IMG/VR virus record: IMGVR_UViG_3300025919_000136
Location: 1 to 64,000 of that record
Origin: a virus
Direction: 5' to 3' (one strand)
DNA length: 64,000 nucleotides
The position numbers were made by a program, and so were the translations under genes. Position 1 is the first letter of the stretch, and every line of letters starts with the position of its first letter. The notes beneath the pieces were generated by a model. That model had not been told where the DNA came from. It worked only from the letters and a program-made list of their open reading frames with translations, and ran no database searches. Positions 51,901 to 61,249 of the stretch are shown one piece after another.

Positions 51901-51988
51901 GTGAACTCCTTAGGTGGCTTGGGTATGAGGGCCTGGGCTTGGAACCAGGGCTGCCGCATTACGGCCCGGATGGGGCCGTCCTCTGCGA

Positions 51989-59845: not shown

Positions 59846-60063
59846 TTAATCTCCTGCAGCCCGGACAGCTTCCCCTCTGGAGAAATGGTTAGCTTCCTAT
59901 ACTCGCCATACTTCAGCCCCATCCAACCGCCACCAGCGCGCGACTCCAGGCGAACGTAGCGCTCGTTCAGCTTCAGCCGCTTGTTAGCCTTATATAAGTG
60001 GTTGTTCTGGCCGACGGTCCAACCTTTGGACTTGGCCCAGTCTACCAGTGCTTGCTTGGTCAT
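59842..60063 (-). CDS. Early protein (paralogue of 51670-51900)
   Basis: Alignable by eye over its full length. Confidence 0.6.
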   Translation of the reverse strand: MTKQALVDWAKSKGWTVGQNNHLYKANKRLKLNERYVRLESRAGGGWMGLKYGEYRKLTISPEGKLSGLQEIK

Positions 60064-60293
60064 TCACGCCCCCATACGGCTTCGTCGATTTCTTCCTTAT
60101 CCTCGACCGGTTGCGGCGTGTTGGTGCTCTCTTCCTCCGCAAAGTAGGTCACGAAGATGTATGGCTCCCCGTCCATTTCGACCAACACTACAACATCACC
60201 TTCGTCGTTGGAAAGTACTTGGGCGGTGGAACCGTCGGTGGTGGGCGTGAAGCCCAAAGTGGAGAGATGAAATGCTGCTTCGGAGACTTTCAT
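60060..60293 (-). CDS. Acidic early protein (paralogue of 54519-54761)
   Basis: TAAGGA site. Confidence 0.55.
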   Translation of the reverse strand: MKVSEAAFHLSTLGFTPTTDGSTAQVLSNDEGDVVVLVEMDGEPYIFVTYFAEEESTNTPQPVEDKEEIDEAVWGRE

Positions 60294-60315
60294 TGGATTC
60301 CTTAAGATAGAGGTA

Positions 60316-60592
60316 GCAAGGCTGGTTGAGCTACTGACGATCATCGCACTACGCTGCAGCGCGTAGGCTCCCGAGGTTCGCTCTCAGTCGGGTTATCAGC
60401 AAGTCGAACACTGCATGTATACGACAGCGGCAGCAAACTTGCTCTCGCCGGACCATGCCGACTCTCCACGGAACCAGCCTTGCCCCATGCAAGCAAACCA
60501 GGAGGCAGGACTCAACTACCTAGCGGGATAGCTGGGGTACAATCGCGAAGTCTTACGACCGTGCCATACGTCCCGAATTGTTCCTGGTTGCT
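60316..60592 (-). ncRNA. Candidate two-domain structured non-coding RNA
   Basis: Closing helices AGCAACCAGGA/TCCTGGTTTGCT and GCAAGGCTGGTT/AACCAGCCTTGC with nested stems; no credible ORF. Confidence 0.6.
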
Positions 60593-60593
60593 C

Positions 60594-60670
60594 TGGGAAC
60601 TCCGATCGGGCTCGAACCGATACTGTAGCCGAATTACTCGGGTGCCTCTGCCAGTTGGGCTACGAAGTTC
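60594..60670 (-). tRNA. tRNA-like gene with aberrant anticodon arm
   Basis: Acceptor AACTTCG/CGGAGTT, D arm TAGCCCAACTGGCAGAGGC, T arm ATCGG TTCGAGC CCGAT, encoded CCA; anticodon loop only GTAAT. Confidence 0.75.
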
Positions 60671-60698
60671 TTAGGAGCCACAGCAGGCTCCACCGTAT

Positions 60699-60768
60699 AT
60701 TATGCCCCAAGCGAACAGCTTTGGGGGCCGTTTTCTCTTGTATACGAAAATAACTGGGTAGTTATTTT
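60699..60768 (-). promoter_or_regulatory. Repeated promoter copy 13 (drives tRNA-like / ncRNA unit)
   Basis: AAAATAACT..AGTTATTTT palindrome - CCCCCAAAG - GGCATAAT. Confidence 0.75.
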
Positions 60769-60871
60769 GATAGGACCCTGCCAGAACCGCTCAGGATCCG
60801 CTAATTAAGGCATACTTGCTGCGGTAGCGAGAACCGCACCGAGCCCCTAACCAGCCCAGGAAACTGTTGGC

Positions 60872-61249
60872 ATGGAATACAGCAACGACACTATCACATA
60901 CTGGGAATGTCCAGTATGCTTGCGGCAAATAGACTCTTGGGAATTCGATGTTCACCTCTTCCGTCACTTAGCGGAGGACACCCCAACTACTAACGGCAAC
61001 GGACATTGTGGGCACGACCACGGAACCTTAGTAGCTGCAGCTATAGATTTGCTAGGGGCGGGCGCTACGAATGGCTTCGGCGTGGTGGAAGTTGGTGATC
61101 CCGGACTGGAAGAGTTCCTGACGAAGCAAGAGGCGGAACTGATGGAGTTCGACGTCTGGTTGAGTTGCGAACAGTTACGACGCTACCGCATCTACTGGGA
61201 GCGACACTACAGGAAATACCGAGCCGAGGAAGATGGAGGGGATGATTAG
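60872..61249 (+). CDS. Protein with C2H2-like Zn finger
   Basis: CPVC...HLFRH. Confidence 0.55.
   Translation: MEYSNDTITYWECPVCLRQIDSWEFDVHLFRHLAEDTPTTNGNGHCGHDHGTLVAAAIDLLGAGATNGFGVVEVGDPGLEEFLTKQEAELMEFDVWLSCEQLRRYRIYWERHYRKYRAEEDGGDD

Follow-up and report, generated by a model that had tools for sequence, protein, structure and literature searches.

We analyzed a 64,000-nucleotide stretch of viral DNA (hereafter the window), which is the first 64 kb of the 88,424-base IMG/VR record IMGVR_UViG_3300025919_000136, labeled a provirus and estimated to be 71% complete. ARAGORN, which a first-pass annotation of the stretch had proposed as a check, called one tRNA gene in the window, a tRNA-Leu(taa) of 76 nt with an encoded CCA at positions 60594–60669 on the minus strand, and under four option sets the same call was the sole tRNA of the whole record. 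The annotation, made from the letters and a list of open reading frames, had described the locus as a tRNA mimic with intact acceptor, D, and T arms and an encoded CCA; all of these are present, on the minus strand, both in the ARAGORN call and by direct reading, and the element is confirmed as a genuine tRNA-shaped gene. Its sequence places it, as an aberrant member, in a large and widespread phage-borne family of short tRNA-Leu genes, which are about 74 nt long and have a five-nucleotide variable loop. The reading we favor, to which we give a probability of about 0.5, is that the phage recently acquired a tRNA-Leu(UAA) gene as cargo, which would since have lost both decoding and leucine acceptance and would now be a relic.

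Read from its 5′ end, the gene opens with an acceptor strand that forms all seven pairs with its partner (AACUUCG/CGGAGUU, one of the pairs being G·U), followed by UA at positions 8–9. The D arm GCCCAACUGGCAGAGGC (60644–60660, minus strand) has the layout GCC-CAACUGGCAGA-GGC, with a fully paired three-base-pair stem and an 11-nt loop; after it come an A, then CCCGAGUAAUUCGGCU, then ACAGU. The anticodon arm, CCCGA-GUAAU-UCGGC, occupies 60628–60642 and can be read in two registers, and the variable loop ACAGU, a signature of the family, lies at 60622–60626, with U60627 as an extra sixth nucleotide if the anticodon loop is read as five nucleotides long. The T arm AUCGG-UUCGAGC-CCGAU (60605–60621) has five of five pairs and a canonical T loop that fits UUCRANY, in ARAGORN as well as in the Rfam tRNA model and the family model, so that the acceptor, D, and T arms of a canonical cloverleaf are all paired. 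The discriminator at 60597 is C73, where the family has A, and is followed by the encoded CCA at 60594–60596. Immediately upstream of the gene, at 60670, stands a G at position −1 that can pair with C73.

The Rfam tRNA model (RF00005) gave the gene 26.7 bits (E = 3.9e-4 in a 96-base search), under the gathering score of 29, and the gene was unlisted in a whole-window Rfam gathering run and in a 501-base E-value run. With the covariance model of its own family (R1, below) it scored 62.0 bits, and at an E value of 3e-17 a chance origin is unlikely.

An assembly error in the anticodon loop, for which the annotation had allowed, does not account for the short arm, because contigs from three of four other samples are identical there. 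Part of a 701-base stretch occurred in nine public runs, none of them recorded as RNA, of which four were examined with a possible source sample left out; the comparison is with contigs, not reads, at low depth (3–5). The contigs of X2 (60574–61000) and X5 (60527–60677; soil, 2024) cover the anticodon arm with no differences and no gaps within the gene, as does that of X3 (60455–60667), which ends 3 nt short of G−1. The other samples date from 2017, and X4 lacked coverage of the gene. The sole difference among the covering contigs is at 60561, outside the gene.

The short tRNA-Leu family of phages

Used as a 77-nt blastn query, the element matched 142 GenBank phage records, none of them covering 80% of the query. 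The best matches, with 96–100% identity over 23–26 nt of the D arm, were to annotated 75- to 76-nt tRNA-Leu genes of the Gordonia phages GodonK and Phendrix, of the Streptomyces phage SparkleGoddess and its relatives, and of Rhodococcus phage Francesca. According to ARAGORN, those genes have a 3-bp D stem, an 11-nt D loop, a 5-bp anticodon stem, a 7-nt anticodon loop, a 5-nt variable loop, and A73. IMG/VR has 70 matches, in 68 loci, to a pattern consisting of the D arm, 14 to 18 arbitrary nucleotides, and ACAGT, the spacer being 17 nt long in 69 of them and 14 nt in one (L032). Among the 66 evaluable matches, 51 were unique, and all 51 had Leu anticodons (TAA 22, CAA 12, TAG 11, GAG 5, and CAG 1). 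They are highly regular: U33 was present in 49, a purine at position 37 in 50, and A73 in 49, both exceptions to the last being register-shifted. CCA was encoded in 24 members and G1·U72 was found in 27, while position −1 was T in 39, A in 8, C in 2, and G in 2. C occurred at position 73 in one member only, again with a shifted register.

We built R1 from 49 canonical members. Held-out canonical members scored 69.9–80.3 bits, other aberrant members 59.3–63.1 bits, and non-Leu tRNAs from the same phage arrays at most 48.3 bits. The element in the window has the family D arm exactly (GCCCAAYUGGCAGAGGC; blastn and the invariant columns of the family alignment), a purine at position 26, the ACAGU variable loop, and no long variable arm. 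The first-pass impression that its D arm and variable region are of the Leu(TAA) type was thus borne out by blastn, the pattern scan, and R1 alike, the source being the short tRNA-Leu genes of phages. Set beside genes 142 and 150 of GodonK and genes 151 and 157 of SparkleGoddess, it shares an identical D arm and A26, ACAGU, a canonical T loop, the lack of a long variable arm, and a Leu-type triplet in the middle of the anticodon arm, whereas it differs in having an arm of 16 rather than 17 nt, no U33 or purine at 37, C73 in place of A73, and G instead of U or A at −1, and in being solitary rather than part of a tRNA array. The parent family is noteworthy in itself, as it comprises short tRNA-Leu genes without the long variable arm, often with G1·U72; full-text searches of one literature library found no description of it. 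In a broader R1 search of 82 sources, which gave 120 matches, 102 of them unique, 90 of the 101 unique matches with a 7-nt loop had Leu anticodons, and the number of unique short tRNA-Leu genes is at least 90.

The same search places the departures of the window element. Family members have an anticodon arm of 17 nt (5 + 7 + 5), and the element has 16 nt from nucleotide 26 to ACAGU, with UAA present; nucleotide 26 is missing, leaving a 16-nt arm, in 2 of the 102 unique matches, the element itself and L085. A73 was found in 97 of the 102, the exceptions being the window element (C), L032:781 (U), two tRNAs with non-Leu anticodons (G), and one truncated match, and among all 102 the window element alone combines a Leu anticodon with a discriminator other than A. 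No second copy of the variant was found across these scans: in IMG/VR, the pattern scan returned no member of the family in which CCA follows a discriminator other than A, the T arm plus acceptor and the anticodon arm had no matches as exact patterns, and the AGTAATT loop with covarying stem bases had 0 matches. Megablast of 5 kb and blastn of 601 bases against GenBank phages likewise gave no match. The AGTAATT-loop pattern had one match in a genome collection, in Rhodocytophaga (L089), and this was rejected as a chance match that is no tRNA.

A scan of metagenomes for short-arm family members returned 14 loci, of which only L085 has a true 16-nt arm; the other 13 were rejected, 11 being canonical in another register, L081 being canonical, and L078 being the L032 contig again. 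The L085 gene (317–390, minus strand), on a 1.2-Mb metagenome contig, shares the layout of the window element (GGC-G-CCGGU-CGCAG-GCCGG-U-ACAGU); it retains A73, one additional base separates its T stem from the acceptor, and the ARAGORN call is tRNA-Cys(gca), with C33. Its kinship with the window element may go no further than membership in the family. About 100 nt away from it, at L085:498–585 (plus strand), is a tRNA of 88 nt with a long arm, whose anticodon loop (ggaa) has 8 nt.

Other members of the family are broken elsewhere. The gene at L032:781–851 (plus strand), within an array of 17 tRNA genes on a 9.3-kb viral contig, has a wrecked 14-nt anticodon arm and a U discriminator and is called tRNA-Asp(atc) by ARAGORN. 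At L073:1346–1410 (plus strand; 63.1 bits with R1), the UAA anticodon and A73 are kept and the T arm is replaced by about 8 nt, and the T stem of the GodonK Leu(tag) gene is bulged. Broken members are sporadic, at a few percent, and damaged in different arms. The degenerate genes of L032 and L073 resemble the window element in having one broken arm and R1 scores of 59–63 bits; in contrast to those two, which lie in arrays of working tRNAs, the window copy stands alone, and it alone pairs a C discriminator with G−1.

The tRNA core also occurs outside ordinary tRNAs. YrlA (Rfam RF02553) is a Y-RNA-like non-decoding RNA, longer than a tRNA, with a permuted tRNA-like module and a Ro-binding stem, and it lies beside a Ro gene. 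Rhodococcus phage Trina (NC_042040.1) has a weak YrlA match (L005:1434–1543, plus strand; 23.7 bits with a gathering score of 69, E = 0.009) within an annotated 209-nt "tRNA-OTHER" pseudogene next to the gene of a Ro RNA-binding protein, and the D arm of its permuted tRNA-like module is nearly identical to that of the short tRNA-Leu family. By this resemblance, Trina shows that the core can be reused in a non-decoding RNA. Together with the provirus label of the record, the Trina case speaks for placing the window element outside the tRNA genes proper, as a YrlA tRNA-like module, the remnant of a tRNA attachment site, or an assembly artifact, an explanation to which we give very little credence. 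The identical sequence in three independent samples argues against an artifact. The gene is full-length and lies in the middle of the record, its neighbors have no Pfam or PHROG assignment, and no tyrosine or serine recombinase (Phage_integrase, Resolvase) was matched in the 88-kb, 71%-complete record, which argues against an attachment site. The likeness to YrlA is limited to mimicry of the D/T/acceptor core; the arms of the window element are in normal order and there is no Ro-binding stem and no adjacent Ro gene, no YrlA hit in the Rfam runs on the window, and no TROVE match in the 88-kb record.

Anticodon arm and acceptor end

The first-pass annotation had given the anticodon arm as CCGA-GTAAT-TCGG with a five-nucleotide loop. 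This sequence is present, and the models disagree on the size of the loop. In the Rfam tRNA model, CCCGA/UCGGC (a C·C and four pairs) encloses GUAAU, and the minimum-energy structure from RNAfold is likewise CCGA-GUAAU-UCGG, whereas ARAGORN and R1 read a 7-nt loop, AGUAAUU, with nucleotide 26 deleted, A60643 read against U60627, and an internal C·C mismatch. U33 together with a purine at 37 is present in no register, the 7-nt reading having G33 and U37, and the arm does not form a canonical 5-bp stem capped by a 7-nt loop that has U33 and a purine at 37. By nearest-neighbor evaluation, the cloverleaf with the 5-nt loop has −16.0 kcal/mol, 1.7 kcal/mol better than a form with a 3-bp stem and a 7-nt loop (−14.3 kcal/mol), and the ARAGORN form is the least stable of the folds evaluated (−12.7 kcal/mol). 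The anticodon helix is weak in all registers, with pair probabilities of about 0.43. The folding energy of the molecule as a whole is ordinary (z = −0.39; 61 of 200 shuffles fold equally well or better). A GNRA-like reading of GUAAU made by eye was rejected, as that register does not pair.

Decoding requires a 7-nt anticodon loop with a U-turn, and under this standard requirement decoding has very probably been lost. The label "non-decoding" given in the annotation is a reasonable inference to this extent, no register providing U33 and a purine at 37 and the arm being 1 nt shorter than in 100 of the 102 unique R1 matches; full-text searches of the same literature library found no phage tRNA with a 5-nt anticodon loop. 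The alternative is an odd but working decoder, with the 7-nt loop AGUAAUU and the anticodon UAA, that reads UUA and UUG and is charged despite C73. ARAGORN and R1 both align a 7-nt loop centered on UAA, the single deviations that it needs do occur in otherwise canonical members (A33 in L008, C33 in L041, and U37 in one), and UUA occurs 93 times among 17,725 codons of the phage. Such a decoder would, however, need G33, U37, a missing nucleotide 26, an internal C·C mismatch, and C73 all in one molecule, in the least stable fold that we evaluated and under the Rfam gathering score for tRNA, and a change of A73 to C abolishes leucylation in the system covered by the passages of PMC9976931 cited here. 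We consider it improbable.

At the other end of the molecule, the extra 5′ G noted in the first pass was indeed found opposite the C discriminator (G−1 at 60670 and C73 at 60597). The pair forms with a probability of 0.98 and contributes −3.0 kcal/mol, bringing the 5-nt-loop cloverleaf to −19.0 kcal/mol. As in bacterial tRNA-His, an encoded G−1 stands opposite a C discriminator that is followed by CCA; unlike in tRNA-His, the body is that of the Leu family and the loop holds UAA, not GUG. The relevant passages of PMC9976931 report that bacterial LeuRS relies on A73 and the D/T tertiary core and not on the anticodon arm: Escherichia coli tRNA-Leu variants without an anticodon arm are still active, and the change from A73 to C73 abolishes aminoacylation, even of a minimal tRNA-Leu. 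In the same passages, HisRS charges mini- and microhelices with G−1:C73, and the transplanted pair confers His acceptance on a tRNA-Ala minihelix; the GUG anticodon also counts for bacterial His identity in vivo, and some alpha-proteobacteria do without G−1 and C73 altogether. Because the element has C73, its leucine discriminator would be lost under the A73 rule as published there (PMC9976931), and by these identity rules G−1:C73 could give histidine acceptance while C73 ends leucylation. The part of the annotation that called the end "His-like" holds for the DNA, where the pair is present and could confer His acceptance under the published rules; it is weakened by the single occurrence of the variant and by an anticodon that is not GUG. 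If the gene is a relic, its interest is mainly as a warning to annotators, since ARAGORN gives a normal tRNA-Leu(taa) despite the missing Leu discriminator and the missing usable anticodon loop.

The cargo slot and the fate of the gene

The DNA polymerase encoded in the record is only 23–26% identical to anything in GenBank phages, and by this measure the soil phage is new. One sister contig was found in IMG/VR, with 86% amino acid identity in the neighboring genes and 93% in the DNA polymerase; searches for further relatives with the DNA polymerase and two neighboring proteins found this contig alone, and the adjoining 125-aa protein has one homologue cluster among 5.8 billion proteins. Nucleotide homology with the sister (blastn) covers 60689–65479 and resumes at 59942–60348, and the breakpoints delimit a variable cargo slot of 340 bases (60349–60688) that holds the tRNA-like gene and a small open reading frame of 51 aa (60341–60496, minus strand). 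The sister instead has 1.7 kb in this slot, with a DUF6745 protein and a 120-aa open reading frame. ARAGORN found no tRNA at the sister locus, and R1 had no match at E ≤ 1 in the 85 kb of the sister. The DUF6745 protein of the sister (L003:4318–5433, minus strand) is 371 aa long and matches Pfam with E = 1.2e-48.

To the right of the slot lies a divergent intergenic region (60689–60871) that is common to both phages, with 87% identity over 183 nt. The tRNA-like gene is 18 nt downstream of it, in the same orientation as the leftward genes, and the region is presumed to be the source of a leftward transcript that begins with the tRNA-like gene. Because no sigma-70 consensus promoter was found in 59900–61100, we can only infer the promoter and the transcription. 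A leader hairpin, GGAGCC-UGCUGU-GGCUCC (60674–60691, minus strand), lies 4 nt upstream of G−1 and straddles the breakpoint of the homology. A hairpin resembling a terminator, with a T run, also lies in the shared region, at 60705–60735 on the plus strand, just past the antisense of the gene; no other such site occurs in 59900–61100, and shuffled sequences have a mean of 1.0.

The reading of the gene as a relic can be laid out against this background. A tRNA-Leu(UAA) gene would have been acquired recently as solitary cargo in the variable slot, and the parts of the L-shape (acceptor, D arm, T arm, variable loop, and CCA) would have been kept intact. The anticodon arm, one nucleotide short, could no longer offer a 7-nt loop that has both U33 and a purine at 37, and with the change of the discriminator from A to C leucine acceptance would have been lost; here published identity rules and standard loop geometry lead us to infer the loss of both charging and decoding. 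Such a relic may still yield a transcript that RNase P and the 3′ processing enzymes trim, and it would have no role in translation. We favor this reading because the variant is unique, the sister lacks the gene, other members of the family are broken, and no partner gene was found. It is supported also by the codon usage of the phage, UUA being its rarest Leu codon (93 of 1,489 Leu codons; 17,725 codons in 40 long open reading frames). In this case the locus would be an instance of ordinary tRNA gene decay in a phage cargo slot.

Several observations weigh against simple decay. To derive the 17-nt anticodon arm from any canonical ancestor that can be written takes at least five edits. Outside the arm, every one of the 15 acceptor, D, and T stem pairs is formed, the D arm and the variable loop match the consensus, and the sole deviations are at T-loop position 60 and at position 73. 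A binomial calculation for at least five of seven edits falling within 18 of 74 nt gives a probability of about 0.01, a rough value that presupposes independent edits; if a single complex mutation made the arm, most of the effect would vanish. The contrast is also partly one of ascertainment, the family having been found through its intact D arm. We take the clustering statistic as only suggestive. In addition, positions −1 and 73 have both changed in the one way that makes a Watson–Crick G:C pair, and the gene comes first after an intergenic region that the sister phage has kept. The gene is identical in samples from 2017 and 2024, which mainly shows that the lineage is young, and with only one relative there is no test of selection in either direction.

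These same observations favor a repurposed, non-decoding tRNA mimic, in which the body would be under selection and the anticodon loop and discriminator remodeled. In a charged form, G−1:C73 would direct RNase P to cut one position upstream, as in tRNA-His, and HisRS could charge the RNA; in an uncharged form, the RNA would be a sponge or decoy for tRNA-binding host factors such as anticodon nucleases, modification enzymes, or processing enzymes. The changes cluster in the anticodon arm and at position 73, with the remaining arms intact, the G−1:C73 pair is both stable and foreign to the family (G at −1 in 2 of 51 members and C73 only in the register-shifted one), and the gene is placed directly behind the shared intergenic region. 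The HisRS results described above (PMC9976931) fit the charged form. Passages of PMC10264068 propose that phage tRNAs escape tRNA-targeting defenses, such as anticodon nucleases, by changes in the anticodon loop, and the window element resembles those tRNAs in that its departures are concentrated there; in contrast to them, as far as those passages describe them, it has no decoding loop, lacking U33, a purine at 37, and one nucleotide.

On the other side, the variant occurs once, neither the non-A73 end with CCA nor the same loop having been found in IMG/VR, and the sister does not have it. The loop holds no GUG anticodon, a contributor to His identity in bacteria, and His identity need not rest on G−1 and C73 in every host, some alpha-proteobacteria making no use of them (both points as given in the cited passages of PMC9976931). 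A G at −1 has a chance of about 1 in 4 in new flanking DNA, and the anticodon helix is weak. TROVE (Ro), RtcB, RNA ligase, CCA-adding enzyme, and Thg1 had no match in the 71%-complete 88-kb record; in the TROVE search, control genomes gave matches. We hold repurposing to be rather unlikely, though worth keeping in view. More doubtful still is the fuller version, that a short tRNA-Leu was converted to a non-decoding tRNA with its body and CCA kept and its loop collapsed against decoding or normal anticodon-loop cutting, that its G−1:C73 end serves tRNA-His-like processing and charging or makes it a decoy for HisRS, RNase P, or a defense protein, and that it is the first product of an early leftward transcript. 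If the gene is functional, it would represent natural, identity-swapped, non-decoding tRNA mimicry in a phage, with a bearing on the purpose of phage tRNAs and on the conflict of phages with tRNA-targeting defenses. The specific roles put forward in the first pass, a processing tag, a nuclease decoy, or an amino acid donor, found no comparative or contextual support, as the sister lacks the gene and no partner genes were found, and simple loss of function, leaving a relic, accounts for the data no less well.

The only repeats found around the slot are short imperfect ones and one perfect 12-nt inverted repeat (60316–60327 and 60472–60483), and no target-site duplication was seen there. Near 60310, the contigs of X2 and X3 diverge leftward from the window, with loose ends of 255 letters, which suggests a strain-level indel or rearrangement beside the cargo slot. 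Elsewhere in the window, at 51933–51987 on the minus strand, there is a match to the Type-P5 twister ribozyme over the full length of the model (50.6 bits with a gathering score of 37.6, E = 1.4e-7).

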